From an uncultured Oscillospiraceae bacterium (GTDB taxonomy: Bacteria > Bacillota > Clostridia > UBA1212 > UBA1255), in the NCBI GenBank assembly GCA_902472555.1, contig CABROF010000001.1:32025-96024 (forward strand): a stretch of DNA of 64,000 nucleotides, written 5' to 3'. Shown here piece by piece: positions 586 to 32,023 of the stretch. The stretch's first letter is position 1; each line of letters begins with the position of its first letter. The translations under genes and the position numbers were made by a program. The notes under the pieces were generated by a model, which did not search any database, was not told the origin of the DNA, and was given only the letters and a program-made list of their open reading frames with translations.

Positions 586-1944
586 TTAAGTTTCCTGTAC
601 AATACATGCACCGGTCAGCGCAATTTTGTTGTTTCTGCCGAGTGCATTTTCCGCAATGACCGTATATCCGCTGCCGGACACATCGAGAGACAGCGCGCGC
701 TCTGAAACAACAAATGTATTAGATAGAATCAGCATATTCTTTGTCTCTTCCAGATAAACGCCTGCCTCAGACTGTCCTTCAAACAGGTTATCACGCATAA
801 AGCCCTTATTGACGCCAATCGTATCATAAAAGCCGTACCGGCCGCCGGTAAGCTGATTATCGCTTACCGATACCATGGAGATATATGCCTCCGGAGCGCC
901 CTCTGTCCGGATACAGGAAAAAGCAGCCGTAATCTCATTCCGGTTGATAAAAATTCCGTCAGGGCCATGCCCTGCGCTGCGCAGTACGATGGCGCTTGCA
1001 CTGCTGCCGGACATTTTATTTCCTGCAATATCCACATGCAGAATCTCCTGGATCACAATCTGGCTGTCACCCGTATTTTCAAAAATATTTCCGTTAATCT
1101 TCAGGCCCTCGCTCCGGCCGGAAGACGTATATCTGCCGTCGCCTACCAGAATGCCCCGGCCCGTTCCTGTGAAATGGTTATCTACGATATAATCGTTAAT
1201 GGAAATTTCCTGTTCCAGCATAGAATAATAAACTGCATATGCCTCTGGATTGGAAACCGCAAATGTACAGCCGTCAATTTTACTGTCAGAGCCGTGGAAC
1301 GTGACTGCGTTTGACGGATTCTCTCTTCCTGATATGAACGTGCAGTTGAACGCCCTCAGATATACGGCAGATACAAGGCTCCCGCAGGTTCCGCGGTGCT
1401 CTATCCGCAGATCTATCATCTGAAAATTATATTTCATGAAAACGCGGAACATATCATCTGCCAATGTTTCCGCACCGATAATGGTCGAATCTCCATCTCC
1501 TTTTAGTACCAGCACCCGTGCATCGTTTTTCGGCACCTGAATCGTTTCGGAGATCAAATAGCTGCCGGATGGAAAATAGACGGTTGCGTTTTTCGCATAG
1601 GCAGCTTCCATCGCCTTACGCACGGCGGCGGTATCATCTGTGCTGCCGTCTCCTGCCGCACCGTAATCTTTTACATTCATATAAGCACTCTCTATTTCTG
1701 ATAATAGAACTTTGTCAATTCGTGCGGTCTCACTATTTTGCATTTCATCACCTTCATTCATTTGATTGTTCAAAGCCGCCGCAGGCTGCGTATGCGCCGC
1801 TTCAGCTGCCTCCGCATATCCTGCGGCGGAAAGTCCCGTACAACCGCACAGCAGCACAGGCAATAAAACGAGGATACTCAGAAGCCCGATTTTAACGCAG
1901 CGCCCTGCAGCGCCGCTGAAGAATATTTTCATTTTCATATGCAA
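586..1944 (-). CDS. Secreted or lipoprotein right-handed beta-helix protein of the pectate-lyase superfamily (GH28-like; polysaccharide lyase or hydrolase).
   Basis: N-terminal signal peptide (LLPVLLCGCTG). The motif KDYGAAGDGSTDDTAAVRKAMEAA is typical of Pectate_lyase_3/GH28-type beta-helix proteins. The ORF track uses a TTG start. Confidence 0.6.
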   Translation of the reverse strand: MHMKMKIFFSGAAGRCVKIGLLSILVLLPVLLCGCTGLSAAGYAEAAEAAHTQPAAALNNQMNEGDEMQNSETARIDKVLLSEIESAYMNVKDYGAAGDGSTDDTAAVRKAMEAAYAKNATVYFPSGSYLISETIQVPKNDARVLVLKGDGDSTIIGAETLADDMFRVFMKYNFQMIDLRIEHRGTCGSLVSAVYLRAFNCTFISGRENPSNAVTFHGSDSKIDGCTFAVSNPEAYAVYYSMLEQEISINDYIVDNHFTGTGRGILVGDGRYTSSGRSEGLKINGNIFENTGDSQIVIQEILHVDIAGNKMSGSSASAIVLRSAGHGPDGIFINRNEITAAFSCIRTEGAPEAYISMVSVSDNQLTGGRYGFYDTIGVNKGFMRDNLFEGQSEAGVYLEETKNMLILSNTFVVSERALSLDVSGSGYTVIAENALGRNNKIALTGACIVQET

Positions 1945-1980: not shown

Positions 1981-3321
1981 TCAGAAAAAGTTATCCTGCT
2001 GATATTTCTCTGCATTTGGGATCCAGCATGCGCCGCTGATCACATTGTACCGCAGTACCGTCTCCTCATCTAAAGCGCCGATAAACACGGAATATAGAGC
2101 TTCACTGCCGCAGTACACGATATTTCCTTCAATGGTGTTCCGCACGGAATCGGTAATATAAATAGATGCGCCATTGCTTTCCACAAAATAATTATTTATG
2201 ATAGAAAAATCCGTAAATTTCGAGGATGTAATGCGGACTCCGTAATAACCCCAAAAATAGTTATCCGTAATCGTAACCCCGGTGATTGTGCCTCCCCCGG
2301 AAACATCAGTCACAACGCCCCCCGGCATATCCGTCCGTTCTTCATAGCCGGTAATATCCTTATTTTTCGATCCCATATAATTATAACGAATGTCCACATT
2401 TTGAATGCCGTTCTCATCCGGATTCAAAAGAATTGCTGTTGTAGCGGCATCCAGCATATTGTTTTGGATCACGCACCCGTCCACAGCCTTAATATAGACC
2501 TGACCCGGAGCAGGAAATAAGAATACGTTCCGCAAAATATGGATTTCCCGCGGACAGCTTCCGGAATCTTCACTGTCAATCAGCACAGAATGCGGAAGAT
2601 TTCCGCCGAAATAGGAATCTGCAAGCGTATTGCATTTCATTTCTCTGCCTGTTTTTTTTGTAAAGCGCACAATATAGCCGTTTGTCGTTCCCGGACCGAA
2701 ATAGCAGCTCCCGATATAATTATCAGAGCCGCTGACCACAACGGCAGTATCCCGATTCTTTTGATTTCCCTGAAGAAATGTACACTCCGTTATGACACTT
2801 CTTTCAGAAGCAAGCTCCAGGACAGAACCTTCCGATGCATTATTTTTTAAAGATAAATATGAGATATGCACATCCGGTCTTTCAATAACGAACAAATCTC
2901 CTCCCACCACAGGGCCGGACTGAATGACCGTCTCCCGCATACGGTTGGGATCCCCGGCCAGCGTAATCGTCCCGGCGCCCTCTGCGGCGATTCGAATTGG
3001 TTCATTGACCTTATATTTTCCTTCTGGAAAATAAATCGTGCCGCCGCCTGCCGCAGCTGCATAGGCAATTGCCTCCCGTATCGCCTGCGTATCGTCAATT
3101 CTGCCGTTTCCGGCCGCACCGAAATCCATAATGTTATAAACGGCACTGTCGCCTGTCAGTACAGGTGCCTTTTGATATACAACTTCATTTTTCACATGCT
3201 CACCATCCTTTGTTGCAGTTGGTTCCGGTTTATAATCGGAATCCGAACGCCCGCCGCAGCCGGCAATCCCGAAAATCAGAAAAACCGTCAGCATACAAAT
3301 CAAATAGACTTTTAATTTCAT
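1981..3321 (-). CDS. Lipoprotein right-handed beta-helix protein of the pectate-lyase superfamily, a paralogue of the preceding gene.
   Basis: Lipobox IAGCGG. Motif YNIMDFGAAGNGRIDDTQAIREAIAYAAAAGGGTIYFPEGKYKV (the Y-DFGA-GDG-DDT-AIQ signature). It sits in tandem with the 586..1944 gene. Confidence 0.6.
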   Translation of the reverse strand: MKLKVYLICMLTVFLIFGIAGCGGRSDSDYKPEPTATKDGEHVKNEVVYQKAPVLTGDSAVYNIMDFGAAGNGRIDDTQAIREAIAYAAAAGGGTIYFPEGKYKVNEPIRIAAEGAGTITLAGDPNRMRETVIQSGPVVGGDLFVIERPDVHISYLSLKNNASEGSVLELASERSVITECTFLQGNQKNRDTAVVVSGSDNYIGSCYFGPGTTNGYIVRFTKKTGREMKCNTLADSYFGGNLPHSVLIDSEDSGSCPREIHILRNVFLFPAPGQVYIKAVDGCVIQNNMLDAATTAILLNPDENGIQNVDIRYNYMGSKNKDITGYEERTDMPGGVVTDVSGGGTITGVTITDNYFWGYYGVRITSSKFTDFSIINNYFVESNGASIYITDSVRNTIEGNIVYCGSEALYSVFIGALDEETVLRYNVISGACWIPNAEKYQQDNFF

Positions 3322-17215: not shown

Positions 17216-17971
17216 TTATAAACCTGGTAATGCATTTTTTCTGCAGGACGCCGTTCCGATCTTTTTTCTCAGATCCGGGCCGTATTTGCGATTTACCGCA
17301 GAATGAATGAAATACAGATACGGCAGCCCCATGTTGGTTTCCAGCAGGGAATTGACGATCAATGTCGCAATGCTCTGATTCCGGATTCCTGAAATCGTTA
17401 GAATAAACTCCCAACCGAACTGCACTAAAATTCCGATGGAAAGGATCCAAAGAAGCGGCGCGCGTTTTTGTTTGTCCTGACAGCGGATATTCCATAGACA
17501 GAGAATCGCATACCCAACAAACAAAAACACCGCCATGATCCCGTGATAACCAGAGGTCCCGCGAAAAATGGAGATTTTTGTGAAACAGCTGCCGAAATTT
17601 TGGCTGAGCAGCGCTGTACACAGCCATCCGCTCGTAATCAGCAGGGACCATTCCAGCGCGTGGCCATCCCGATCCAGCCAGACCCAAATCCAAACGAAGT
17701 TGGTAAAACCATAACTCATGGATAGCCAGAGAAGAAACCAGACCGGATCCGCACCTTCCACAGTCCGCGTCCCAAGCCACATATAAAAAACTCCGTAATC
17801 TACAATAAAATATAAAATCCCGCCAAGAAAGCCCGCGACTGCCGCCTGATACCGCCGGTTCCAAAGCAGCACCGCCAGCAAAAAGCATAAAAACAAAATA
17901 TCCAGAATGATATATAGCGTATTCATGGTACGCGCTGCCACTACCTCGGAAAATAAGCCGTTCATCAGCAA
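17216..17971 (-). CDS. Hypothetical polytopic membrane protein.
   Basis: Trp- and Phe-rich hydrophobic helices (ILDILFLCFLLAVLLW..., FLLWLSMSYGFTNFVWIWVWL). A competing 309-aa ORF in another frame on the same strand looks non-protein-like. Confidence 0.4.
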   Translation of the reverse strand: MLMNGLFSEVVAARTMNTLYIILDILFLCFLLAVLLWNRRYQAAVAGFLGGILYFIVDYGVFYMWLGTRTVEGADPVWFLLWLSMSYGFTNFVWIWVWLDRDGHALEWSLLITSGWLCTALLSQNFGSCFTKISIFRGTSGYHGIMAVFLFVGYAILCLWNIRCQDKQKRAPLLWILSIGILVQFGWEFILTISGIRNQSIATLIVNSLLETNMGLPYLYFIHSAVNRKYGPDLRKKIGTASCRKNALPGL

Positions 17972-18883: not shown

Positions 18884-21463
18884 ATGAAGCACAGAAAAGA
18901 TTTTTTTCATATTTTAATTCGTTGTATGCTTGCCTTTCTTTTTATTTATACAGCCGCCGGCTGTACCGTACAATCCCTGCCGCAGCATACAGCGCCTGCT
19001 GCTTCCGCTTCAGATCGGACGGATTTTCCTGTGCAAACGACTGCTGAAGCCTCGCCTGCCCAAACACCTTCCTCGGAAACGCCCAATCCGGCACACTTTT
19101 TAAAAATCAGTGAACTAATGGCTTCCAACACCTTAGGAATTACAGACCGTCAGGGCGTCAGGCAGGATTGGATTGAACTTACAAATTACGGCAGCGTTCC
19201 CATCCATCTCAAGGGCTTTTCCCTGAGTCTTTCTCCCGGAAGCGTAAAATGGACATTTCCCGACGTATGGATAGCGCCGCAGGCATCCCTGCTGCTATTT
19301 GCTTCCGGCGCAGGCACCTATACCGGCGAGCTGCACATTGCCTTCAAATTGAGCAAGGAGAGCAAAACCGTCCTGCTTGCAGATCCGGAAGGCCTTTTGA
19401 TTGACAGCGTTACATATCCTGATCTAAAAGACGATTATGCCTATGCACGGACCGGGGCTCAGCCCACGGATCCCTTTGCGGTCACAAACATTGTCTCGCC
19501 GGGATATCCAAATACGGTTGCCGGTGTGGAGGCATATTTTGCAGAAGCAGAGGCCGGGGGTAAAATGCTGGTGATCAACGAAGCGGTAAGCTCTAATTTT
19601 CAGCAGCTGGAACAAAACGGAGCATATTATGACTGGATTGAAATTAAAAATGTCACTTCTGCTTCCGTCAATCTAAAAAATTATTATTTATCCGACAGCA
19701 AAAAGGATCCGTTGAAATGGAATATGCCGGATCAAATACTCGCGCCCGGTGAAATCTGTGTTTTTCTCGCCTCCGGGGATGAAAGTCTGACTGGCGGTTC
19801 CTATGTACATACAAATTTTAAGCTGGACGGAATATCAGAATGCCTATATCTATCAGACGCTGCCAAAAATTTGCTTGACGGTGTGCTGCTAACGGACATT
19901 CCCTATGGCGGAAGCTGCGGCAGAATGCCCGGGAAAGCCGGCTTCTTTTACTTTGAAAAAGCAACGCCCGGCGAAGAAAACACTGCCGGGAAACGAGAAA
20001 TCTCCCATACGCCGGTCTCATTGACGCCGGATGGTATTTACGACGAATCCGCCGCACCGATTCTTGTTACGCTTTCCGGAGAAGGCAGGATTTATTATAC
20101 GCTTGACGGAAAGGAACCGACGGATAAGAGCCTGCTCTATACAGGTCCCTTCACGATCTCCGAAACCACAGTGGTCAGAGCGGTTTCCATCGCGCCGGAT
20201 AAAATCAAAAGTGACGTATACACAGCCGGCTTTTTTATAAACGAAGGCCATACGCTTCCGATTCTGAGCGTTGTATTGGATCCGGACGATCTCTGGAGCG
20301 ATGAAACGGGGATTTATGTAAAAGGGCCGGATGCCTCTCCGGAGGCACCCTATTACGGAGCAAATTATTATAAAGACTGGGAGCGAAAGGCCAGTGCCGC
20401 ATTTTATGAAAAAGGCGGAAGCGGATTTACCATTGACTGCGGTCTCAAAATCGCGGGCGGAGGAAGCCGGTATCTCGAAAAGAAATCATTCAGCCTGAAA
20501 TTCAAATCCCGTTACGGCAGCGAATTTCTTGAATATCCCATATTTGAAAATCCAGATGCACCAGCCCGCTTCAAAACGCTCATGATTCGCTGCGGCGAAG
20601 ATTATACCCGTTCTATTTTCCGCGATGAATTTCTCACCGCACTGGCCGCAGACGGCATGCAGAATCTCGAGGTGCAGAATTACAGGTTCTGTGTTCTGTA
20701 TCTGAACGGCGCGTATTGGGGAATCTATGCCATCCGGGAAAAAGTCGACGAAGACTTCGTGGTTTCCCGTCACCCAGAGACGGACCCGGAAACGGTCTCT
20801 CTCATCCGCAGCAGCGCAGATGTGGAGTTCGGCAGCGGAAAAGCTTATGATGCGCTGTGCCAATACGTAAAAAAACATGATATGTCCCTGCCTGAAAGCT
20901 ACCGTTATCTCGCGGATCGTGTCAATGTCGACAGCATGATCGAATGGCTGGTGGCGGAAGTCTACTCCGGTAATAAGGATTTGGCCAACATCCGCTGCTT
21001 TACGGCAGCAGACCCTGCAGGCAAGCAAACGCTGAAATGGTACTGGGTATTTTATGACCTTGACTGGGGATATATTCATCACGTCGCGCCCTTTTATTTT
21101 CTGCAGGGCAGCGCCGAGGACTCCCGCTCCGTTTTATTCCGCGCGCTTCTGAAAAGTGAAGAAGGCCGCGACCGATTCCTTACGCAGCTGGCATATCACC
21201 TGAGAAATACATTTTCAGAGCAGAAGGCGCTGCAGAAAATCGCGCTGCTGGAATCACTGCTGGAGCCTGAGGTTCTGCGCAACTGCCGCCGATGGGATGT
21301 GCCCGTAGAAAATTACAGGCAAAGCGTTGCGGCGCTAAAAGCCTACGCCTCCTCCGGGCGAGAGCAAGAGGTGATTGATGCAGCAGTCCTTTATTTCAAT
21401 CTTTCCGCCGCAGAGCAGCAGCATTATTTCGGAATGATCTCTGATGAACGCCTGCGCAAATAG
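18884..21463 (+). CDS. Secreted CotH-family (atypical kinase-like) protein with two N-terminal lamin-tail domains (LTD).
   Basis: Signal peptide. Two LTD motifs (ISELMASNTLGITDRQGVRQDWIELTNYGSVPIHLKGFSLS and VINEAVSSNFQQLEQNGAYYDWIEIKNVTSASVNLKNYYLSD). The C-terminal region has the CotH-like RFCVLYLNGAYWGIYAIREKVDEDFV ... NKDLANIRCF. Confidence 0.65.
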   Translation: MKHRKDFFHILIRCMLAFLFIYTAAGCTVQSLPQHTAPAASASDRTDFPVQTTAEASPAQTPSSETPNPAHFLKISELMASNTLGITDRQGVRQDWIELTNYGSVPIHLKGFSLSLSPGSVKWTFPDVWIAPQASLLLFASGAGTYTGELHIAFKLSKESKTVLLADPEGLLIDSVTYPDLKDDYAYARTGAQPTDPFAVTNIVSPGYPNTVAGVEAYFAEAEAGGKMLVINEAVSSNFQQLEQNGAYYDWIEIKNVTSASVNLKNYYLSDSKKDPLKWNMPDQILAPGEICVFLASGDESLTGGSYVHTNFKLDGISECLYLSDAAKNLLDGVLLTDIPYGGSCGRMPGKAGFFYFEKATPGEENTAGKREISHTPVSLTPDGIYDESAAPILVTLSGEGRIYYTLDGKEPTDKSLLYTGPFTISETTVVRAVSIAPDKIKSDVYTAGFFINEGHTLPILSVVLDPDDLWSDETGIYVKGPDASPEAPYYGANYYKDWERKASAAFYEKGGSGFTIDCGLKIAGGGSRYLEKKSFSLKFKSRYGSEFLEYPIFENPDAPARFKTLMIRCGEDYTRSIFRDEFLTALAADGMQNLEVQNYRFCVLYLNGAYWGIYAIREKVDEDFVVSRHPETDPETVSLIRSSADVEFGSGKAYDALCQYVKKHDMSLPESYRYLADRVNVDSMIEWLVAEVYSGNKDLANIRCFTAADPAGKQTLKWYWVFYDLDWGYIHHVAPFYFLQGSAEDSRSVLFRALLKSEEGRDRFLTQLAYHLRNTFSEQKALQKIALLESLLEPEVLRNCRRWDVPVENYRQSVAALKAYASSGREQEVIDAAVLYFNLSAAEQQHYFGMISDERLRK

Positions 21464-21605
21464 CTTAGCTTCGGCAGCTGAGCCGCGAAAAAGGCGCCTG
21501 CCTGTTTCGCAGGCCAATACTTCCTTGCGATAAACCGGCGGCTGTCATCCGGTAAATGGGGCTGTAAAAAAACGCGATAAAAGTAAAAATCGCACATGAT
21601 AAATT

Positions 21606-21698: not shown

Positions 21699-22619
21699 TT
21701 ATTCGCGTCTCATTCTGCGTTTCGTTGCAGACACCGCACCTGCCAATACTGCGGCTGCACAGATACAAGCACAAAGGAAATCCGCATCACCGGTCTCTAC
21801 AGGTTCCAATCCGCCCTTTACGATAAACGGCTGTTCTTCCACTACCGTGCCGGCTTTGTTTCTCATCACAACCTTATATGCACCTGCCGGAATATCAATA
21901 TAAGGCTTCACCTCGGCATTGTCCGGAGTAGGACAATAAAAATCAAACAAATCCAGAGCAACGCCTGGCTGAATAACCGTATAATCCTGCGTGGTCTCCG
22001 TAAGCGTAAAGTATGCATAATAAATACCTGCATTCTGACCAGGCACACTGTCTTTTAAGTAAAGCACTACGGAATCTGTGTCTCCGCCGGTTGCCGTCAC
22101 CATAATCGGTTCCCCTTCTTCATAAACTTCTTTGTTCAGCGATAAAGAACGTTCAATGCCGGCAGTAATCGTAAATTCTTTTGTGGCTAAAACAGAACCA
22201 CTTGTGGCTCTGACTACAATTTTATAATTTCCCTCTTTCAGAGCCTTTGTTTCGGCATCAATAAATGGTTTCACATCATTCGGATTCTCCGGAGTCGGAC
22301 AAGCCCACTTTAAAAGATCGCTGGCAACGCCATTGTCCAGCTTTGTATACGATTCCCTTCCTGTTATGGTATTATCAAAACAAGCATAATAAATACCACC
22401 GTTCACGCCGGGCGTCTTATCCTTTTGGTAGACCACCACATAATCTGTATCTTCACCTGTAGCGGTAACCAGAATTGTTTCTCCTACTTCATAAACGGTT
22501 TTATCCGTCGACAAGGAACGTTCCGCTTCTGCCCGCACCTGTATCACAGGCAGAAAAGACAGCAGCAAACAAACCGCCAATAAACCTAAAATACCCTTAC
22601 TCACATATTTCATATACAC
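21699..22619 (-). CDS. Cell-surface protein with two copies of a roughly 130-aa repeat domain, a signal peptide and a C-terminal hydrophobic anchor with a basic tail.
   Basis: The internal repeat is [SLS-DKTVYEVGETILVTATGEDTDYVVVYQKD..PG.NGGIYYA.F] x2. The C-terminus is FLCACICAAAVLAGAVSATKRRMRRE. Confidence 0.5.
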   Translation of the reverse strand: MYMKYVSKGILGLLAVCLLLSFLPVIQVRAEAERSLSTDKTVYEVGETILVTATGEDTDYVVVYQKDKTPGVNGGIYYACFDNTITGRESYTKLDNGVASDLLKWACPTPENPNDVKPFIDAETKALKEGNYKIVVRATSGSVLATKEFTITAGIERSLSLNKEVYEEGEPIMVTATGGDTDSVVLYLKDSVPGQNAGIYYAYFTLTETTQDYTVIQPGVALDLFDFYCPTPDNAEVKPYIDIPAGAYKVVMRNKAGTVVEEQPFIVKGGLEPVETGDADFLCACICAAAVLAGAVSATKRRMRRE

Positions 22620-22633
22620 CCAACCTTTCTTAA

Positions 22634-23560
22634 TTATTTTCTCTTTTTAAGAACAACTATCACAATTACTGCAATTACAGCAGCCGCAACTACGCCTACA
22701 ATCATCCAGACAGCAGTATTGGTACCGTCTTGAGAAGAATTGGCTGGTTTTGTTGTGGGATCAGTCGTATCATCCGGTTCTGCAGTCACAATCTTTGCCG
22801 TTGTCGGAGTCGGGCTCGGCGCTTCCGTTGCATTCGGGTCTTCTGTTGCATTGGGATCCTTTGTCGGAGTCGCCAGCCGCCAGACAACCTCAAATGCCTG
22901 CTCTGCCACCACCGTACCGCTGTTATCCCGTATGACAATCTTGTACGCGCCTTCCGGTATATCTATATACGGAGCTACCTGCGGATTTGAGGGGGTGGCG
23001 CAGAACCAGTCAAATACATCGATCGGTACATGATTTTCAATTAAAGTGTAGTCTGCTCTTGCTCCTATTGACGTATCAAACGCAGCATAATAAATACCGG
23101 CATCCTGACCCGGAATATAATCCTGTGGATAGAGACATATATAGTCCGTCGCTTCCCCGGATGCCGTAACCAGAATCGCCTCTCCCTCTTCATAAACCGT
23201 CTTATCCAAGGATAAAGAACGTCCCGTGCCTGCTTCCGGATCTGTTCCCGCTGCCGTTCCCGGCGTCATATCCTGTACTGCGAAAGCCCCCCCCTTTTCC
23301 ACCGTCTTTATTGATGTGTCATTCGTAAAAACTGCGTAATAAATTCCTGAATTTTGTCCCGGGACATCGTCTTCTCTGTAAAAGCCAACAAAATCCGTAT
23401 CTTCACCTGTGGCGGTAACCAGAATTGTTTCTCCTACTTCATAAACGGTTTTATCTGCTGACAGGGAACGTTCCGCTTCTGCCTGCACTTTTACAGGCAG
23501 AAAAGACAGCATTACACAGACCGCCAGCAAACCAAAAATACATCTGAATCCATTTCTCAT
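22634..23560 (-). CDS. Paralogous cell-surface repeat protein. It has two copies of the same domain, then a Thr/Pro-rich stalk, then a C-terminal transmembrane anchor.
   Basis: The same repeat signature (SLSADKTVYEVGETILVTATGEDTDFV ... SLSLDKTVYEEGEAILVTASGEATDYICLY ... AGIYYAAF). Stalk PTKDPNATEDPNATEAPSPTPTT. Anchor MIVGVVAAAVIAVIVIVVLKKRK. Confidence 0.5.
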   Translation of the reverse strand: MRNGFRCIFGLLAVCVMLSFLPVKVQAEAERSLSADKTVYEVGETILVTATGEDTDFVGFYREDDVPGQNSGIYYAVFTNDTSIKTVEKGGAFAVQDMTPGTAAGTDPEAGTGRSLSLDKTVYEEGEAILVTASGEATDYICLYPQDYIPGQDAGIYYAAFDTSIGARADYTLIENHVPIDVFDWFCATPSNPQVAPYIDIPEGAYKIVIRDNSGTVVAEQAFEVVWRLATPTKDPNATEDPNATEAPSPTPTTAKIVTAEPDDTTDPTTKPANSSQDGTNTAVWMIVGVVAAAVIAVIVIVVLKKRK

Positions 23561-23585: not shown

Positions 23586-25835
23586 TTATTTTACAATCCA
23601 TACCGGATTGGAAAACGCAAAACCGCCCATATAATCCGAATCACCGAATAACGAATGCTGCGTGTACACTTCTACTCTGTAAAACTCATTTTCCGCCACA
23701 TCAATTTTTTGACTGTATTCAAACAGATGTGCCCCCTTGGATCCTTTTGCATCCTCATAAAGCACCTTTACTTCCCGATTCTTATAAGCGGTATCCACAT
23801 CGCCGCCTATTGTATATCGATATAAGACCACCTTTTTAATTGTCGAATATTGGTCCGCAGCTCTGATTTTCACAGTTGCCGTGCCGTTTTCCGGAAGCAG
23901 CAAAGACTGTCCGTTGCCGGCGCCGCTAATAGAAAAACGCAATTCCGGTCCGTTTGTTCCATAGAAGGTTCCATTCTTCAGCGCTTGAATGATGTTCTCT
24001 TCATTCAATTCATTGATCAGCACCGCGTTCCCTGCCGTACCCACAATCTGATCGGTATGACCGTCGGTATTGCAAATGCCATAGTAATGCTGCTCACCTT
24101 TCAGATTATAACGATCCCACCACTCAAACGCATCATCCGTCCATTCTGAATGCCTACGATAATTATGTCCATCCTCATTGTAGACCTCAATTCCGGTAAA
24201 ACCCGTGTAATAATCCACTTTCGTCGGATCCGTTCCCACTCCGGGCCAAATCCAGCGGCCGTCTCCAGTGTAAAACGGATGCGCAATATAGCACAGCCCG
24301 CCTTCCTCAATAATCGTATCCATAATTTCCTGCCATTCCCCTACTGTGGGCCGGATCGCCGCCATGATTTCCCACATACCGCCAGTATATCCCGCTGGAT
24401 GCATGTAAGTCGTATTATATTCCAGCATGTGGCCATAGTTGGTCGTAATTTCATTTCCCACAATCGGAATAAAGTCCGTAAGGCCTTTTGCCGCAGCCCG
24501 GGCAAACGCTTTATTGCCGGGATTGCAGTTGTGTTCCGTAGTCAGAATCCACGCATGGCCTTTGTGATACACGGAAAGAAAGTTATCTTTTAAAGGGCTG
24601 TGGCCGTCGCTTAGCGTACTGTGCGTATGCGCATCTCCCACATAATAGCCTTTGCCATCGGCAATCAGGCGGAAGGATTCTTGAGATAAAATTTTATTGC
24701 TTTTTGTCAGTAATTGTACCGAACAAAGTCCGCTGCCGCCTTCCTGTATAGTGAAATCATATTTGAAATCAGCCGATCCCTGGGCTTCAACCACAATCGC
24801 CAGCTGATCCGCATGGGCATTATGCGTCATCAAAAGCGGCCGCTCTAACTTTACTTTAAACGTTCTATCAGTATCTGTGTGGTTTTCCAGTGTACCGGTA
24901 ATAGACATGGTGTTTCCTGCCGCTGCCTCTCCTGTCAGAACTACATCTCGCATAATATAGCTTTCCACCTCGGCAGACCCACGGTTTTCAAGCGTTTGTG
25001 GATCCGTTATTACATTTTTAAAGCTCTGATAAGCTTGCTGAACCTCCTGTTCAGTCAAAGCACCGCTGTAAAGCGCTGCCTTCGTATAGATAGATGCGCC
25101 TGCCGCATAATCCGTGATTGTTTTGCCGGTCCCGATATCAGCACCGATTACATAGATAAAAGGAGACTCGCCGAATGTCAGACCCGATACATGCAATGTA
25201 TTCTGCAACTGGCCATTCACATAAAACAGGATCTGATTTTTCTCGGCATCATAAACACCCATCAGATGATACAATTCTCCAATCCGTATTTTTTCCTTTC
25301 CGAAAACCGTTCTGTAATCTGTATCAAAATGTTGGAATTTAAAGAAACCGTTATCAAACCAAAGCCCAAACATCCCGTTCTGCGTGGAAGAAAAAATTCC
25401 GATTTGCCGATTGCCCGGCTCCTCTGTATACTGTACTGCCGCTTCAATACTGTAGCCGCCGGACAGTGTCTTCTGAAATGCTTCCTCTTCGGCATAAGCA
25501 GATAAATCGACGCCCATGGCCTGTTTATCCTCTCCCGTATTCCGGTATCCCGGAATTGTCGCAGTTATGCCCTGATGTGTTACTGAGACAGGCTCCACCA
25601 TACCGCTGCCTTCTGTTCGGAACGAAGCATTGTGCGCCAGATCCGCATAGGTCCCGTCACGATAGAAGCACACATCCGCAATGACATGATTCTGATATAA
25701 TGAAAACCCCTCTTTTACGGCAGAATCCGGAATCGCCGGAGGCCCGCTTTCAGCAGGATCCGCAGTTTCTGGACTGCATGCATATAAACTCAGGAAAACC
25801 ATCAAAAGCAACCCGATGATACCTTTTTGTTTCAT
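23586..25835 (-). CDS. Secreted lipoprotein with a PHP-family metal-dependent phosphoesterase domain and a LamG/concanavalin-like domain.
   Basis: Lipobox LSLYACS. PHP signature GDAHTHSTLSDGHSPLKDNF ... ILTTEHN. The preceding region (GIFSSTQNGMFGLWFDNGFFKFQHF ... LYHLMGVYD) resembles LamG. Confidence 0.55.
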   Translation of the reverse strand: MKQKGIIGLLLMVFLSLYACSPETADPAESGPPAIPDSAVKEGFSLYQNHVIADVCFYRDGTYADLAHNASFRTEGSGMVEPVSVTHQGITATIPGYRNTGEDKQAMGVDLSAYAEEEAFQKTLSGGYSIEAAVQYTEEPGNRQIGIFSSTQNGMFGLWFDNGFFKFQHFDTDYRTVFGKEKIRIGELYHLMGVYDAEKNQILFYVNGQLQNTLHVSGLTFGESPFIYVIGADIGTGKTITDYAAGASIYTKAALYSGALTEQEVQQAYQSFKNVITDPQTLENRGSAEVESYIMRDVVLTGEAAAGNTMSITGTLENHTDTDRTFKVKLERPLLMTHNAHADQLAIVVEAQGSADFKYDFTIQEGGSGLCSVQLLTKSNKILSQESFRLIADGKGYYVGDAHTHSTLSDGHSPLKDNFLSVYHKGHAWILTTEHNCNPGNKAFARAAAKGLTDFIPIVGNEITTNYGHMLEYNTTYMHPAGYTGGMWEIMAAIRPTVGEWQEIMDTIIEEGGLCYIAHPFYTGDGRWIWPGVGTDPTKVDYYTGFTGIEVYNEDGHNYRRHSEWTDDAFEWWDRYNLKGEQHYYGICNTDGHTDQIVGTAGNAVLINELNEENIIQALKNGTFYGTNGPELRFSISGAGNGQSLLLPENGTATVKIRAADQYSTIKKVVLYRYTIGGDVDTAYKNREVKVLYEDAKGSKGAHLFEYSQKIDVAENEFYRVEVYTQHSLFGDSDYMGGFAFSNPVWIVK

Positions 25836-25854: not shown

Positions 25855-28179
25855 TTAATCTATCAATTCTCCGTAAACTTCCATTTCCGCAATTTCAACA
25901 CAATACCCGGCGGATGCCGTCCCCGAACGAGTCAGCTTTGTTGCGGCGAATTGAACATAACGTGCTTGTATGGGCTCAATTTCTAATGTACGTACATCCT
26001 GACGCTGCGGAGTATTATCATGCTTCATCTGTTTGACGGCTGTCCACTGAACGCCGTCTTGGGAAACCCGGATTTCATAATCATCCGGAAAAACATTTAC
26101 ACCATTCCATACCTTTTGCGGCGTCAGTACAACACGTTCTACTTTATAACTTCCCAACAGATCGATTATGATCCATTCTTCTGCGTTTTCGGTGGAATTT
26201 CGATTCATTCCGCTGGACCAGACTTTAGATGTACCATCGTTAATATAGGTATAATGGCAGTTCCAATCCGGCTGATCCGTACTGGAGGAATAACTTAAAA
26301 CCGGTTTATGCAATGCAATATTTTCGCCATCTGTATAGGCTGGCGGTTCATAAGAAGTAGCAATATGGTCTTCAATAGAACCGTCATCATGATAAACCGC
26401 GATCTCACCGATTTCACAGAAGCAATTCCCCTCCGATAGCAAAAAATCCGTTACCACCAGACGCATATAGCGTGCCTGTATCGCATGAAAACGAAATACC
26501 GGTACTTTGGTACGGTCCAGGATATCATTTTCTTCTCTCACAACCTCCGTCCATTCCCGGCCATCTGCCGAAGTCAGAATCAGAAAGGATTTCGGAAAAT
26601 AAGCCCCGCAGCGAACACCATTGCCCATCGGATACAAGTCCACGCGATTCAGCGTCTCTATATCACCGAAATCCAATGTGATATATTGTGCCCTTCCGTC
26701 CGTGGTTATCAGTTTTGCACCGTTTCCATCTGTTCCTTCTCCGTCATGCACATCACATAAGAAAGCAGTACCGTCCCCTGCCGCGCTGCTGGCAAAGAGA
26801 CGGGCAGAGACAGCTAAATTTCGTGATCTTTCATGACTATCTTCAACTAAATTCCCGTCAATCACCTGAAATACCGCACCGTCGCCGGCTGCCAGCTGCA
26901 GCGTCAGCACCCCGTTTTCCACCGGCGCATCCACCAGCGCTCCGGTACGCTCGTCAACCATCTTCAGCCGAAGCGCTCCTACATCCAGACGGATCTGCTG
27001 TGTTTTTCTAAAATCTTTGTTTACAATCATGAAATACGAATTCTCGTCGCTGCGCGGCTGAATAACAGATAAGATAACATCTGTTTTATCGATTGCTTGT
27101 ATCGGGAAGTCATTCGGAATTTTTTTATAAGCACCGGGAGTTCTTATCATACTGTGGTAAACTGCCACTGCATCGCCGGAAGCCAGATACGTCCCCAGAC
27201 GATGGATTTTTTTGTTGATTTCACACACTGCGAAAAAAAGATCCGTCGGTTCATAATCCCTATCAAAAATAGCATTGCTGTATGTACCTTCCCCGCTGGG
27301 GGGCGTTCCCCATGTAAAAAACTTAAGTTCTTTTACACCGTACGCCAATGCCGCCATCATATTGTAACGCAGATCAGCGGCAGTCGGTCTCCGATAATGA
27401 TCCTGATATCCGACAGACTGTACGTATACCGCTGTGTTTTTTCCGGTAGCCAGCGCGGCGCGGCGCAGATCATCATAATTTCTGAATAATTCAAGCTCAT
27501 TAACGCCGCCGTTTAAATCAAAGCAATAGGTATCCAAAGACAACGTCCCGCCGTAAGGAATCAAGCTTCCAAAATCGGTTAGACGTTTATAATAGGTTCC
27601 CTCCGGATAACATCCTCTCGGCAGGAAGTTGATATTGATATACGAATCCGGACAGACAGAACGCAGTAAATTTTCCACATCGGCATAAACATTCGGATTG
27701 ACCGGCTCATCCACCACATAAAAGCCGGCAAATCCCGGTAAATCCTTATATTCTTCAGCAATCTCCAGCAGCGCTTCATCGGTTTGTTCAAGGCACGTCT
27801 GAATGCGGTAATCTCTGGAATAAATACGCAGACCGTGTTCCGCAGCTTCTGCCATAATCTGCTTGTACTTATCTGCCGTATGGCCTTCCGCGACCCATAC
27901 AGGATCCACATATATATGAGAAACCACATCAATTTCCGCTTCATTCATATAAGCAAATTGTCTTTTCCGTACCTCTTCGTCGTGCAGTGGTACCAGATAT
28001 GCATTAATAATAATATTGTCCCGCGTAATCGGCTGTACATTGTTCATTGGCAGCATATAGTCCTCCTTTTTGTCCTGTTCAGGCTGATTGCTCCGGCGGC
28101 ACCCCGGCAGTATGAAAAGCAGCAGTAATGAGAAAAGTATGATTACAGTCAGCTGCCATCTCCTGAATATTGGATTCAT
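25855..28179 (-). CDS. Secreted glycoside-hydrolase-like TIM-barrel protein with two C-terminal F5/8 type C (discoidin) domains.
   Basis: Signal peptide. The N-terminal half has FAGFYVVDEP-type GH-like motifs. Two discoidin-like blocks (...AQYITLDFGDIETLNRVDLYP... and ...EEWIIIDLLGSYKVERVVLTPQ...). Confidence 0.5.
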   Translation of the reverse strand: MNPIFRRWQLTVIILFSLLLLFILPGCRRSNQPEQDKKEDYMLPMNNVQPITRDNIIINAYLVPLHDEEVRKRQFAYMNEAEIDVVSHIYVDPVWVAEGHTADKYKQIMAEAAEHGLRIYSRDYRIQTCLEQTDEALLEIAEEYKDLPGFAGFYVVDEPVNPNVYADVENLLRSVCPDSYININFLPRGCYPEGTYYKRLTDFGSLIPYGGTLSLDTYCFDLNGGVNELELFRNYDDLRRAALATGKNTAVYVQSVGYQDHYRRPTAADLRYNMMAALAYGVKELKFFTWGTPPSGEGTYSNAIFDRDYEPTDLFFAVCEINKKIHRLGTYLASGDAVAVYHSMIRTPGAYKKIPNDFPIQAIDKTDVILSVIQPRSDENSYFMIVNKDFRKTQQIRLDVGALRLKMVDERTGALVDAPVENGVLTLQLAAGDGAVFQVIDGNLVEDSHERSRNLAVSARLFASSAAGDGTAFLCDVHDGEGTDGNGAKLITTDGRAQYITLDFGDIETLNRVDLYPMGNGVRCGAYFPKSFLILTSADGREWTEVVREENDILDRTKVPVFRFHAIQARYMRLVVTDFLLSEGNCFCEIGEIAVYHDDGSIEDHIATSYEPPAYTDGENIALHKPVLSYSSSTDQPDWNCHYTYINDGTSKVWSSGMNRNSTENAEEWIIIDLLGSYKVERVVLTPQKVWNGVNVFPDDYEIRVSQDGVQWTAVKQMKHDNTPQRQDVRTLEIEPIQARYVQFAATKLTRSGTASAGYCVEIAEMEVYGELID

Positions 28180-28478: not shown

Positions 28479-28506
28479 CGGAAATTGCGAAAGGATGGAG
28501 ATGATT

Positions 28507-29352
28507 ATGAAATCTGAATTGCTATCTATCGGCAAGATGGCAAAGCTGAACCGGCTTTCTATCCCAACGCTGAGATTGTATGACGAAAAGGGACTTCTGA
28601 AGCCGCGCTACATTGACCCCTGCAGCGGATACAGATATTATGATATTCATCAAAATGCACGTCTGGATATGATTGCATACATGAAGGAATTAGGTATGAG
28701 CCTGTCTGAAATTGCAGATGTATTTCAAAAAGAAGATCTCACCCGAATCGAGGATATCCTTGCCCAAAAGAATGAGCAGATTCACGAACAGATCCGCCGC
28801 TTGAAAGCCAGACATGATGCAGTAGAACGTGCAATTGTGTCTATTGAACGCTATCGGAAATCGCCGGCAACAGGCACGCTGTCACTGGAATATATTGACC
28901 GGCGCTGCATCTGGGGAATTCCATGTTCCTCTAATTTTTACAGCAGCGATATTTCCGGCTATGAAAAAATGCTGCTGGAACTTCGCCATTCCCTGGAGAA
29001 ACATGCATTTGAGCAGATTCATTCCTATAATATCGGCACATCGATTACCAAGGAAAATTTTATCAATGACCGCTTTATTGCAAACGAAATTTTCATTTTC
29101 ACCAATCGGCATGAGCAGAATGCCCAGGCAACACTGCAAACCATAGACAGCGGCATGTACGCGTGTATCTATCTGGATAATTATGATGATGAGATGGCTT
29201 ATGCACGGATGCTGAAAGATTATTGCGCACAAAATCATTATGATATTTCCGGCGATTATATCTGCGAAGTTATGACGGAATTCAACGTATTTGACAGCGA
29301 TCATCGCAGTATGTTCCTGAGACTGCAGGTTCCGGTAAGCTTTTTTAAATAA
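28507..29352 (+). CDS. MerR-family transcriptional regulator with a C-terminal GyrI-like effector-binding domain.
   Basis: N-terminal HTH LSIGKMAKLNRLSIPTLRLYDEKGLLKPRYIDPCSGYRYY and coiled-coil linker. Start ATG 28501 or 28507. Confidence 0.8.
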   Translation: MKSELLSIGKMAKLNRLSIPTLRLYDEKGLLKPRYIDPCSGYRYYDIHQNARLDMIAYMKELGMSLSEIADVFQKEDLTRIEDILAQKNEQIHEQIRRLKARHDAVERAIVSIERYRKSPATGTLSLEYIDRRCIWGIPCSSNFYSSDISGYEKMLLELRHSLEKHAFEQIHSYNIGTSITKENFINDRFIANEIFIFTNRHEQNAQATLQTIDSGMYACIYLDNYDDEMAYARMLKDYCAQNHYDISGDYICEVMTEFNVFDSDHRSMFLRLQVPVSFFK

Positions 29353-30718: not shown

Positions 30719-32023
30719 TCAATCATTTTGTGATATGCCCTTCGATAAACATTGGTATCGATATCTCAATATACTACTTCCACATAGGATAAACGCAACA
30801 CCAATGATCAAAAGTGAAAATGTATTGTCCGCGGTGATTGGGTTCTTCCCATCCACTTCGATCGACCTAACGTCTGCCTTCCAATCTTCATATAAAGTTT
30901 TCGACATTAATGTAATAACAAATGGCTTGTTATCAAAAAGACCTTCTGTGGACGCTAAAACCTTTGCGGCATAAGTTCCCTGTTCTGAAAAAGACAAAGT
31001 TCCGTCACTATTTTCAATTCTTTCATAGTCGGCACTGCATTCTATTATTTGAAGTGAAGAGAATATAATATCTTTTTGGAAATACGTCTGCAACGCATCT
31101 TGCACGCTATACTCAGCAATCTGGGTATATAATAACGGATAATACATAAAATATTTATTTGGTCTTTCACTACGTTCGCCGGTATGTGATGGACAAAACA
31201 GATCGGCCAAGGAACCGCCGTTAATCCTCCAACCGTTTTCTGTATAGATAAAGGATACAGACAAAATTAACGGAACCAGAGCGCCTTGATACTTTTCAGA
31301 AGCGTTATCTAACCTAAGATAACCAAAAGCTTCGCGGGGGTCCCTTTTCTCCATCCAGCAGCCGGTTTGGTCATTGCTGCCGCCAACCTGCATGCTGTCG
31401 AAATTGGTTGGATAAATAATCGGTTGCCAATTCACAGGGGTGTTCTCTAAAAAATATGCTTTGCCTTCATGATTGGTCAGCATTCCCAGCATGTGACCGG
31501 TTCCGCGCCCGTGTTCAATTGCATATTGATAATAATTATCGGTATAAATAGTTTGGGCAAGTTCCTCCCAATACGCGTAATCCGTCATACCCTCTTTCGC
31601 TGGCAAATATTTTACGATATGCCCATTGCGTTCCAAAAAGACAGGTTCGCCACCTTGATCAATATAGGGGGACGCATCATGATAAACCAATTCAAACAGT
31701 TCGCAGGCTTTGGCGCATAACGCAATAATCTCCCCATCCGTAATGCTGTCTTCTGCGGCTTGAACCTTATTCAGTACGCTCACAAATATGGCGTTATCAA
31801 GGCTGCCATCAAATACAAAACCAATCGCCAGCATGTCTATCGCCGGCTGCGCCGTTATGATGGTTCTGTTGACTCTTTGCGCGACCGCTCCAGAAGACCG
31901 CACGCCCATCCGAATCAGCATACCCCAGAAGAGATAAAACTCATTTCCGATATGCGCAGACGGAATCCGGCTGCCGGTCTTATCGTCTTCTGGGTTAAGC
32001 TTACGCAGCGAGGCTGCTCCCAT
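30719..32023 (-). CDS. Hypothetical protein with a C-terminal transmembrane anchor. The true start is probably far downstream of 32023.
   Basis: Protein-like composition over most of its length, with a C-terminal hydrophobic segment LLIIGVAFILCGSSIL. Its first 90 or so codons overlap an IS481-type transposase fragment encoded on the opposite strand. The gene is therefore either shorter or truncated. Confidence 0.35.
   Translation of the reverse strand: MGAASLRKLNPEDDKTGSRIPSAHIGNEFYLFWGMLIRMGVRSSGAVAQRVNRTIITAQPAIDMLAIGFVFDGSLDNAIFVSVLNKVQAAEDSITDGEIIALCAKACELFELVYHDASPYIDQGGEPVFLERNGHIVKYLPAKEGMTDYAYWEELAQTIYTDNYYQYAIEHGRGTGHMLGMLTNHEGKAYFLENTPVNWQPIIYPTNFDSMQVGGSNDQTGCWMEKRDPREAFGYLRLDNASEKYQGALVPLILSVSFIYTENGWRINGGSLADLFCPSHTGERSERPNKYFMYYPLLYTQIAEYSVQDALQTYFQKDIIFSSLQIIECSADYERIENSDGTLSFSEQGTYAAKVLASTEGLFDNKPFVITLMSKTLYEDWKADVRSIEVDGKNPITADNTFSLLIIGVAFILCGSSILRYRYQCLSKGISQND

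Follow-up and report, generated by a model that had tools for sequence, protein, structure and literature searches.

Two adjacent genes on the minus strand, designated A and B, close a four-gene operon that runs from a GH42-like glycosidase through a LamG-PHP hydrolase to B and then A (Table 1). A and B are the only genes carrying the module described below within the window, i.e., the whole 64-kb stretch of DNA that was analyzed. The gaps between the four genes comprise 19, 25, and 20 nt, and from this spacing the genes are predicted to be co-transcribed. Both enzymes possess apparent lipoprotein signal peptides (LPGC and LYAC, as read from the sequence). The 749-aa LamG-PHP protein was assigned by Pfam (1.4e-13) and by the NCBIfam model NF038032 (115 bits versus a cutoff of 80), and only about 22 homologs of the 774-aa GH42-like glycosidase were detectable. 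Sequence searches of the Protein Data Bank (PDB) returned nothing for the 749-aa protein, and for the 774-aa protein the matches were confined to its CBM32 domains. All strain contigs of sufficient length had the same gene order, and in other species (L002-L004) parts of the operon are kept, namely the glycosidase and/or the LamG gene followed by a module gene. The divergently transcribed MerR-family gene, a possible regulator of the operon, occupies the same position in the strain contigs L001 and L019-L023. A terminator-like hairpin downstream of A may mark the operon end, in a region in which the number of terminator-like sites is not above the shuffled expectation.

Table 1. Features of the A/B locus and of its surroundings (positions in the window)
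Feature	Position (nt)	Strand	Residues	Description
Terminator-like hairpin	21496..21514	-		about 185 nt downstream of A; consensus scan only; possible operon end
Gene A	21699..22613	-	304 aa	ORF from ATG; signal peptide, module 1, module 2, sorting-signal-like C-terminus
A sorting-signal-like region	21702..21803	-		PVETG 21789..21803; 19-aa hydrophobic stretch 21723..21779; KRRMRRE 21702..21722
A module 2	21816..22154	-	154-266	hmmsearch 2.7e-63; copy used for modeling
A module 1	22164..22523	-	31-150	A-type variant with longer loop IDAETKALKEGNYK; hmmsearch 4.7e-62
A signal peptide	22524..22613	-	1-30	MKYVSKGILGLLAVCLLLSFLPVIQVRAEA; basic N-region, hydrophobic core, AxA-type end; read by eye
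Gene-conversion tract, A copy	22438..22594	-	codons ~7-59	core 22440..22523; blastn, pS and sister-species mosaic test
Gene B	22634..23560	-	308 aa	ORF; signal peptide, truncated module, linker, full module, PT-rich stalk, transmembrane anchor
B membrane anchor	22637..22717	-		transmembrane segment of 23 aa and KKRK tail
B T/P-rich stalk	22718..22882	-	55 aa	13 Thr, 9 Pro; holds imperfect 2 x 18-nt repeat
B module 2	22883..23224	-	113-226	full length; hmmsearch 4.8e-66
B Gly/Thr/Pro linker	23225..23263	-		directly after truncated module 1
B truncated module 1	23264..23473	-	30-99	hmmsearch profile positions 1-72 of 109
Gene-conversion tract, B copy	23388..23541	-		same evidence as for A copy
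LamG-PHP partner	23586..25835	-	749 aa	putative lipoprotein; LamG (Laminin_G_3) and CehA/McbA-type PHP metallohydrolase
GH42-like partner	25855..28179	-	774 aa	putative lipoprotein; GH42-like TIM-barrel glycosidase domain and two F5/8 type C (CBM32-like) domains
MerR-family regulator	28495..29352	+		Pfam; divergently transcribed

A first-pass annotation of this DNA had described tandem paralogs of 306 and 308 aa with an internal domain duplication, each containing two copies of a module of roughly 130 aa. The list of open reading frames confirmed the two adjacent genes as well as the length of protein B, whereas protein A reaches 306 aa only from a GTG at position 22619. We favor the ATG start at 22613 because of the gene callers and the ribosome-binding site, and the resulting 304-aa protein is also called in public assemblies (P0001, P0170). 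Tandem paralogy with internal duplication was supported as well, with a smaller module (113-120 aa, with a period of 123 aa) and an unequal copy number: A contains two copies, each matching the seed profile at about 1e-62, but B contains 0.6 of a copy and one full copy. In the hhalign comparison the truncated copy aligned only to columns 1-74 of 114 (probability 99.6%) and thus is without the last two long strands. This truncated module is unlikely to fold alone, so that a partial decay of B is possible. The longer loop of A module 1 is common to the A-type orthologs in L002, L004, and L025. Gene B is identical in L001, L019, and L021, and residues 114-285 of its product (module 2 and the start of the stalk) share 62.7% identity over 177 aa with a single-module ortholog in L003/L026. 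The PT-rich stalk preceding the anchor of B was found as annotated before; the 18-nt tandem repeat reported there consists of just two copies (22823..22858) that are identical in 15 of 18 nt and encode DPNATE-DPNATE, as confirmed by eye, and Tandem Repeats Finder did not report it even at the lowest score threshold. The stalk of a B ortholog (P0003) reads DPNATE-NPDVTE-NPTTEK. The possibility that A and B are lipoproteins (LAVC) was ruled out by inspection, as the cysteine lies midway within the hydrophobic core and is preceded by valine (position -1).

The structure of A module 2 was modeled by AlphaFold2, which predicted a beta-sandwich (pLDDT 96, pTM 0.88). No significant Pfam or NCBIfam match to the module was obtained on either A or B. 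Profiles of known bacterial Ig-like adhesin domains (Big_2, SpaA, FlgD_ig, MG2, and others) gave no significant match either, and the sub-threshold matches on A and B were to FlgD_ig (E 0.02), DUF4397 (E 0.03), and MG2 (E 0.047). Searching the solved structures of the PDB with the module profile revealed no match (best E 0.18). SKICH is a domain of the proteins NDP52, TAX1BP1, and SKIP, and its relatives include fn3_PAP (PF17808), the N-terminal domain of PPD1-type purple acid phosphatases, and HECW_N (PF16562). The SKICH model (PF17751, gathering threshold 23.4 bits) did not match A, B, or A module 2 alone at E up to 1. Several relatives of the module exceeded this threshold, i.e., P0019 (42.5 bits), P0092 (36.9 bits), P0107 (28.4 bits), P0059 (24.5 bits), and P0083 (23.7 bits), and P0019 was linked to A at E = 3.2e-15 in the exhaustive search. 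Weak Pfam matches among 64 module copies were to MG2 (7), SKICH (4), fn3_PAP (1), and HECW_N (1). Since relatives at E of about 1e-15 pass the Pfam threshold, the module represents a divergent bacterial SKICH-like domain within the beta-sandwich group formed by SKICH, fn3_PAP, and HECW_N; for the modules in the window, SKICH membership is transitive only, at the superfamily level. The earlier statement that the module matches no nameable family was confirmed for direct matches to Pfam and NCBIfam. The hallmark strand motif of SKICH, DW[IV]G[IL][FY], occurs in the family consensus and in most of the distant family members; the copies in the window are without it and read TDYVVVY, TDSVVLY, TDFVGFY, and TDYICLY at this position. 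A literature search for bacterial SKICH domains found nothing relevant.

The module subgroup has a 40-residue loop (W-x-C-x-TP-x-NP-x-V-x-PYIDIP) that is nearly invariant between free and fused copies. Scanning named genomes with a 10-sequence alignment located the closest module in rumen and gut metagenome-assembled genomes labeled Ruminococcus, Mageeibacillus, or Clostridia bacterium, with module identities not exceeding 50%. The relatives in the wider family are mostly secreted hydrolases, in which the module is attached to many unrelated catalytic domains. The commonest partner is not a glycosidase but a calcineurin-like phosphoesterase (Metallophos, 23 of the 58 proteins scanned), which suggests that the module may be a general-purpose extracellular domain. 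One relative in the wider family bears a dockerin.

In other species the module is found on the enzymes themselves. At 15 loci (L006-L014, L027-L032) the sole module forms the C-terminus of an ortholog of the 774-aa glycosidase (58-63% identical), and no free-standing module gene is present at these loci. Here the module occupies the place of the second CBM32 of the window enzyme. Likewise, P0011 is a full-length homolog of the 749-aa enzyme (44.6% identity over 736 aa) with two added C-terminal modules. The layout of P0121 is module-CBM32-module-module. The species with fused modules are gut and rumen Clostridia. Stand-alone anchored module proteins persist in at least four lineages, and the number of modules per ortholog varies (1, 1.6, 2, or 3). 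Because other species fuse the module to both upstream enzymes, A and B look like detached helper domains of a sugar-degrading system and not like a new adhesin. An adhesin, as suggested in the first-pass annotation, has no support: the operon containing the two surface enzymes is conserved, and elsewhere the module is fused to orthologs of each of them.

The 5' segments of A and B had previously been described as almost identical and attributed to recent duplication or ongoing gene conversion. Comparison of the two tracts by blastn revealed 87.3% identity over 157 nt, which falls short of near-identity and is nevertheless far above the 40-70% found elsewhere in the genes. In the 84-nt core the identity amounts to 91.7%, with a longest exact run of 44 nt. 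The identity at third codon positions is 75-85% in the tract and 15-50% elsewhere; synonymous differences affect 11 of 39.5 sites in the tract versus 77 of 93 outside (Fisher p = 1.6e-9), corresponding to pS values of 0.28 and at least 0.8, respectively, and to a dS of about 0.35 within the tract. The core of either gene is only 67-76% identical to the sister-species orthologs. In the next 72 nt beyond the core the identity between A and B drops to 57%, versus 77.8% between A and the A gene of the sister species and 63.4% between B and the B gene of the sister species. The orthology signal therefore switches sharply at the tract edge, where each gene becomes closest to its sister-species ortholog. 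This pattern is clearly that of a gene-conversion mosaic resulting from an event of about 155 bp. The conversion postdates the split from the nearest sampled species and is too old for the copies to be identical. The donor was probably B, because the module part of the tract looks B-type. Sequence exchange between the paralogs was thus rightly proposed, but calling it recent or ongoing overstates the case, since the tract is 8-13% diverged and neither tract differs in those strain contigs of other samples that extend into it.

The same 5' similarity would also arise if selection acted on the nucleotide sequence itself, e.g., on an mRNA element or on a translation or secretion signal, and the tract does encode the signal peptide along with the beginning of the mature protein, a region in which constraints at the mRNA level sometimes occur. 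This explanation is very improbable and already largely refuted, as the tract is only 67-76% identical to the sister species and 44-59% to L002, compared with 83-92% between the paralogs in one genome, the two L002 paralogs are only 53% identical over it, and the orthology switch at its boundary is sharp. As in the concerted evolution of other tandem surface-protein paralogs, a short tract has been homogenized in A and B, with a sharp return to orthology at its edge. In contrast to such systems, the exchange in A and B is limited to one old tract of about 155 bp, which is invariant among strains and gives no evidence of programmed variation. It represents a clean small case of concerted evolution, but not an unusual one. 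Two further candidates for conversion were rejected. The clustered strain polymorphisms in A module 2 do not appear as micro-conversions from B module 2 or A module 1, as only one of three variant residues fits either donor. A contig break in the sister species, considered as a sign of a homogenized 5' tract there, results from an internal duplication of a module, with nearly identical copies, within the A-type gene of that species.

The C-terminal regions of A and B differ. The PVETG sequence of A (residues 271-275 of 304) is located 34 residues from the C-terminus and is followed by the hydrophobic stretch FLCACICAAAVLAGAVSAT and the basic tail KRRMRRE, which the first-pass annotation had recognized as a hydrophobic anchor with an RRMRRE tail. 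The three-part, sortase-signal-like layout of this anchor was absent from that annotation. In possessing a signal-peptide-like sequence (by eye), an xxxTG motif, a hydrophobic stretch of 19 residues, and a tail of consecutive basic residues, A resembles the sortase substrates of Clostridia. The A-type orthologs carry NPKTGD (L025) and PPSTGD (L004), which likewise continue into a hydrophobic stretch with a basic tail. Among the 29 family proteins that end in a hydrophobic and a basic segment, 12 have an xxxTG sequence directly before the hydrophobic one. Unlike these substrates, PVETG does not conform to xPxTG, since valine stands where proline is expected; the sortase B motif of Clostridioides (C.) difficile is (S/P)PxTG (PMC4155245). 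PVETG may be likened to NVQTG, which has the status of a proposed sortase motif only and which C. difficile SrtB failed to cleave in vitro (PMC4155245). The LPXTG-anchor models of Pfam and NCBIfam did not match A, and neither a sortase (an ORF with the TLxTC motif) nor other sorting-signal proteins were found within the 64-kb window. Judged from these sequence features, A is probably attached to the cell wall via a sortase-type signal. No xTG motif is present in the C-terminus of B, which is probably attached to the membrane via its C-terminal helix on the 55-residue T/P-rich stalk.

Taken with the operon and the fusions, these features lead us to lean towards a role of A and B as exported, non-catalytic surface proteins of an operon that processes an extracellular glycan, with the module binding the substrate. 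The module, elsewhere a C-terminal domain of enzymes, would here have been split off into separate self-anchoring proteins. It may bind the substrate of the operon in the manner of a carbohydrate-binding module, a putative role with contextual support from its fusion to glycosidase orthologs at the position of a CBM32, and the polymer would thereby be held at the surface beside the apparently lipid-anchored enzymes. Surface glycan-binding proteins are known from glycan-utilization loci, with CBM32 and SusE/F-like proteins as examples. Like these proteins and the carbohydrate-binding modules (CBMs), the module is an accessory beta-sandwich that is either fused to glycoside hydrolases or placed on separate surface-anchored proteins in the same operon; no sequence or close structural relation to any CBM family was found, however. 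Its nearest structural relatives (SKICH, HECW_N, MG domains, and fn3_PAP) bind proteins or are without a known function, none of them being an established CBM, which speaks against substrate binding. A more specific version is tentative: the subgroup with the W-x-C-x-TP-x-NP-x-V-x-PYIDIP loop could be an unrecognized CBM family for the substrate of the uncharacterized GH42-like family, with A (sortase, wall) and B (stalk, membrane) acting as glycan-capture proteins on a Gram-positive surface, as functional counterparts of the SusE/F-type proteins of Bacteroides.

If the accessory-domain reading is true, the locus would make a small enzyme system of gut and rumen Clostridia, so far without a name, accessible to experiment. 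This system consists of a GH42-like glycosidase and a LamG-PHP hydrolase, together with a module for binding or anchoring that lies outside every domain library. Extracellular bacterial proteins would thereby join the known occurrences of the SKICH / fn3_PAP type of beta-sandwich, which could help to explain the function of the enigmatic N-terminal domain of purple acid phosphatases. Current understanding is not overturned by the findings on A and B.

Alternatively, the modules might dock enzymes instead of glycans: they would bind the glycosidase and/or the LamG-PHP enzyme, so that A in the wall and B in the membrane organize a surface complex, loosely like a scaffoldin. Fusion in some species combined with separate adjacent genes in others, as found for the module, is a classic sign of physical interaction; moreover, SKICH and HECW_N, which have the most similar folds, mediate protein interactions, and the different anchors of A and B would correspond to two envelope depths. 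We nevertheless regard such a scaffold as unlikely. The enzymes need none to stay on the cell, as they possess their own apparent lipoprotein signal peptides, and a module fused to its enzyme would need to bind the very chain of which it is part. Furthermore, the wider family joins the module to many unrelated catalytic domains, and besides the dockerin-bearing relative nothing resembling a cohesin-dockerin system was found.

Less probable still is that A and B are stand-alone adhesins which bind host or matrix ligands via tandem Ig-like domains and are adjacent to the enzymes only incidentally. Surface-anchored tandem beta-sandwich repeats on a stalk and a labile domain copy number among orthologs would suit an adhesin, as would the clustering of amino-acid-changing polymorphism in A module 2 and the residues directly following it (in L019, four of the seven differences fall in A, and the protein variants differ at T200K, A249D, E254A, and L264S). 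However, no adhesin family was matched, the genes keep their place beside the enzymes in different species, fusions of the module with both enzymes occur elsewhere, and the relatives of the module are mostly secreted hydrolases. Finally, many fn3 or Ig linkers in secreted enzymes provide length only, and the module might likewise be an inert spacer, with A and B as functionless fission products and B part-degraded. This is the least probable of the functional readings. In independent samples the reading frames of A and B are uninterrupted and show few or no differences, and dN lies far below dS. Moreover, stand-alone anchored forms have been kept in at least four lineages, and the long loop of the subgroup hardly varies.

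Genes A and B are the last of four minus-strand genes in one run (gaps of 19, 25 and 20 nt), in which the 774-aa and 749-aa enzymes precede them, and a divergently transcribed MerR regulator lies upstream. The order 774-749-308-304 aa was kept in all strain contigs of sufficient length. The 304-aa form of A begins at an alternative ATG at 22613, which is preceded by a GAAAGG ribosome-binding site and is also the start in public gene calls. Reading by eye revealed signal-peptide-like N-termini with AEA at the end in A and B, and lipoprotein-like signals in the 774-aa and 749-aa enzymes (LPGC, LYAC). For the 749-aa LamG-PHP protein no solved structure was detectable by sequence; its sister-species homologue is split in two ORFs (L026, 748..2175, 475 aa, and 2179..3024, 281 aa), and the homologue in locus L002 of another species has 515 aa as called and 556 aa in our own extraction. 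The CotH-LTD gene adjoins A in strain contig L019 and is not found beside the module genes of L002-L004.

Features of the four-gene run and of the remaining window
Feature	Coordinates	Strand	Description
Gene A	21699..22619	-	ORF, 306 aa from GTG
Gene B	22634..23560	-	ORF, 308 aa
749-aa enzyme, second gene of run	23586..25835	-	Laminin_G_3 domain and CehA/McbA-type PHP metallohydrolase domain
774-aa enzyme	25855..28179	-	GH42-like glycosidase with two F5/8 type C (CBM32-like) domains
CotH-LTD neighbour, convergent, downstream of A	18884..21463	+	859-aa putative lipoprotein: two Lamin Tail Domains, Fn3_assoc/CHB_HEX_C, CotH kinase domain
5' tract, copy in A	22594..22438	-	
5' tract, copy in B	23541..23388	-	
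DPNATE repeat, stalk of B	22858..22823	-	two 18-nt units
Second tandem paralogue pair	586..1944 and 1981..3321	-	putative lipoproteins, pectate-lyase-like right-handed beta-helix domains (Pect-lyase_RHGA_epim, NosD, Beta_helix)
ORF	30719..32023	-	434 aa
ORF	45757..47364	+	535 aa
ORF	17216..17971	-	251 aa

Glycan genes abound in the remaining window, with pectate-lyase-like beta-helix lipoproteins, GT4 transferases, GH123, GH2 and GalT. The 434-, 535- and 251-aa ORFs had no Pfam match at E up to 1e-5; the first was also called in strain contig L001, likewise without Pfam matches.

The first-pass annotation had assigned two module copies to each gene. This held for A, which contains two full modules of 113-120 aa (aa 31-150 and 154-266), whereas in B only the second copy (aa 113-226) is full length. 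A profile built from three module copies matched each of these full modules at E 1e-62 to 1e-66, but on aa 30-106 of B the match was confined to profile positions 1-55; hhalign aligned columns 1-74 of 114 (probability 99.6%) and a broader profile positions 1-72 of 109. B thus comprises one full module and a preceding truncated copy, which lacks the last two long strands and has a Gly/Thr/Pro linker instead. The internal duplication is old, its copies being 69-71% identical as DNA. In the profile search of the 64-kb window, the module was absent from every ORF other than A and B.

Direct searches with A and B in Pfam and NCBIfam returned sub-threshold noise only. Five relatives were recovered from 5.8 billion proteins by word-indexed searching, and 144 (41 at E < 1e-10) by exhaustive phmmer against 1.84 billion cluster representatives, many of the latter being proteins of 700-2700 aa. 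The seed profile detected 282 module copies in 137 proteins, in tandem runs of up to five, and in 94 of these proteins the first copy begins within 60 residues of the N-terminus. AlphaFold2 modelled module 2 of A as a beta-sandwich (64-sequence alignment, pLDDT 96, pTM 0.88). Independent of this model, weak Pfam matches were obtained among the 64 copies to MG2 (seven), SKICH (four, best 8e-4), fn3_PAP (one) and HECW_N (one). Moreover, the SKICH gathering threshold (23.4 bits) was exceeded by five full-length relatives. P0019 scored highest, with 42.5 bits, and the matching stretch is one of the aligned modules. The family consensus contains DWVGxY and SIYWxY, in place of which the window subgroup has TDYVVVY; this subgroup has also acquired a loop of some 40 residues that is almost invariant (W-x-C-x-TP-x-NP-x-V-x-PYIDIP). 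These results place the module in a divergent bacterial branch, as yet unannotated, of the SKICH / fn3_PAP / HECW_N beta-sandwich group, outside Pfam SKICH as currently defined. Across the wider family, the module is most often paired with a Metallophos phosphoesterase (23 of 58 full-length relatives); further partners include fn3, Big_2, DUF5722, CWB2, GH25 and a dockerin. In P0017, P0025, P0057, P0059, P0083, P0116 and others, SKICH-like modules at the N-terminus are combined with a calcineurin-like phosphoesterase. The module-Metallophos relatives resemble plant PPD1-type purple acid phosphatases with their fn3_PAP-Metallophos layout, which hints that this pairing is an old, shared architecture.

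The free-standing module genes of other species (L002-L004) come after homologues of the same enzymes. A further 15 loci (L006-L014, L027-L032), from Clostridia MAGs and metagenomes of rumen and gut, encode an orthologue of the 774-aa enzyme, 58-63% identical, which carries one C-terminal module in the place of the window enzyme's second F5/8 type C domain; none of these loci has a free-standing module gene. Similarly, the 749-aa enzyme has a full-length homologue, P0011 (44.6% over 736 aa), to which two C-terminal modules are added, and another fusion, P0121, has the layout module-CBM32-module-module. Since the module is fused to both enzymes in some species and adjacent to them in others, there is strong evidence that it works together with them. 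A and B most likely act as exported, non-catalytic accessory proteins of a surface enzyme system. Substrate binding, as by a CBM, is the favoured function, because the module replaces a CBM32 in the fused orthologues, the subgroup-specific loop is equally conserved in free and fused forms, and each enzyme seems to possess an anchor of its own. Its main rival is enzyme docking, as the closest folds are protein-interaction domains. The earlier proposal of a novel adhesin domain found no specific support, given the adjacency or fusion to both enzymes. A and B most likely belong to the accessory beta-sandwich proteins of glycan-utilisation operons; their significance is modest and lies chiefly in a module without annotation and in the rarity of its enzyme partners.

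The 5' tracts of A and B share 87.3% identity over 157 nt, with a longest exact run of 44 nt, so that "near-identical", like the second copy of B, was an overstatement in a largely real observation. The identity is nevertheless raised above the rest of the genes: third positions agree at 75-85% (20-codon windows) versus 15-50% elsewhere, and synonymous differences per site are 0.28 (dS 0.35; 11 of 39.5) versus 0.8-1.0, saturated (77 of 93; Fisher test p = 1.6e-9). On the 5' side, the upstream regions and first seven codons are dissimilar. The sister species (metagenome GCA_016294925.1; contigs L003/L026 and L025) likewise has a B-type gene followed by an A-type gene, and the 84-nt module part of the tract was compared with the next 72 nt.

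Nucleotide identity of A and B to each other and to their sister-species counterparts
Pair	84-nt part	Next 72 nt
A to B	91.7%	57.1%
A to sister A	69.0%	77.8%
A to sister B	75.0%	58.3%
B to sister B	76.2%	63.4%
B to sister A	66.7%	60.0%

Exactly inside the tract the orthology signal gives way to A-B identity, a pattern of gene conversion, as suggested, and not of selection. The tract looks B-type, as it lacks the extra residue of A-type modules before the TD motif and is nearer to B-type orthologues, and B therefore was probably the donor of its module part; over the signal-peptide part the sequence is too short for a donor to be named. The homogenisation is specific to the window lineage, because the paralogues in L002 are just 53% identical in this region. 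No tract differences occurred in five strain contigs from other samples that cover the tracts wholly or in part (both copies in L001, L019 and L021; the B copy only in L022 and L023), so that conversion, which had been suggested to be ongoing, gives no visible sign of it.

The hydrophobic anchors and the PT-rich stalk described before were recovered. In A, PVETG and a GDAD-type spacing lead into a hydrophobic stretch of 19 residues, and KRRMRRE closes the protein; this is the tripartite organisation of sortase sorting signals. In B, a stalk of 55 residues (13 Thr, 9 Pro) is followed by a 23-residue hydrophobic helix and KKRK. The tandem DNA repeat reported in this stalk exists as two units encoding DPNATE, but it is imperfect (three synonymous differences) and absent from the Tandem Repeats Finder output. 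A-type orthologues end in ENPKTGD (L025) or PPSTGD (L004), each before a hydrophobic segment with a basic tail, and 12 of the 29 family proteins with such a C-tail, including A, have xxxTG immediately N-terminal to the hydrophobic stretch (e.g., SPSTGD, PPQTGD, KPKTGD, NVTTGD, NIQTGD). C. difficile SrtB cleaved (S/P)PxTG in experiments, while the proposed motif NVQTG was uncleaved in vitro (PMC4155245); PVETG is therefore a non-canonical candidate motif. No sortase gene was found in the 64-kb window. A is probably wall-linked via sortase and B probably held in the membrane on its stalk.

B-type orthologues have one module in L003 and L004, 1.6 in the window and two in L002. The sister-species A-type gene (L025 3..1118, contig JAEAME010010126.1) has three, the first and second being nearly identical across some 90 residues; this suggests a very recent tandem duplication inside the gene, which probably caused the L026/L025 assembly break. 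As module number varies from one to three among orthologues, duplication and loss continue in the family although the internal duplications of the window are old. A 273-aa version of A on a 1758-bp ENA contig (P0171), with an unrelated tail after VVA, reflects either a frameshift or an error of assembly or sequencing. Strain polymorphism was concentrated in A at 21808..22006 (module 2 and the following segment), with small numbers and possibly linked changes: four of the seven differences from L019 over 8.25 kb, and both differences from L001 and L021 (21853 and 21838, 16 nt apart), lie in A, the protein variants being T200K, A249D, E254A and L264S.
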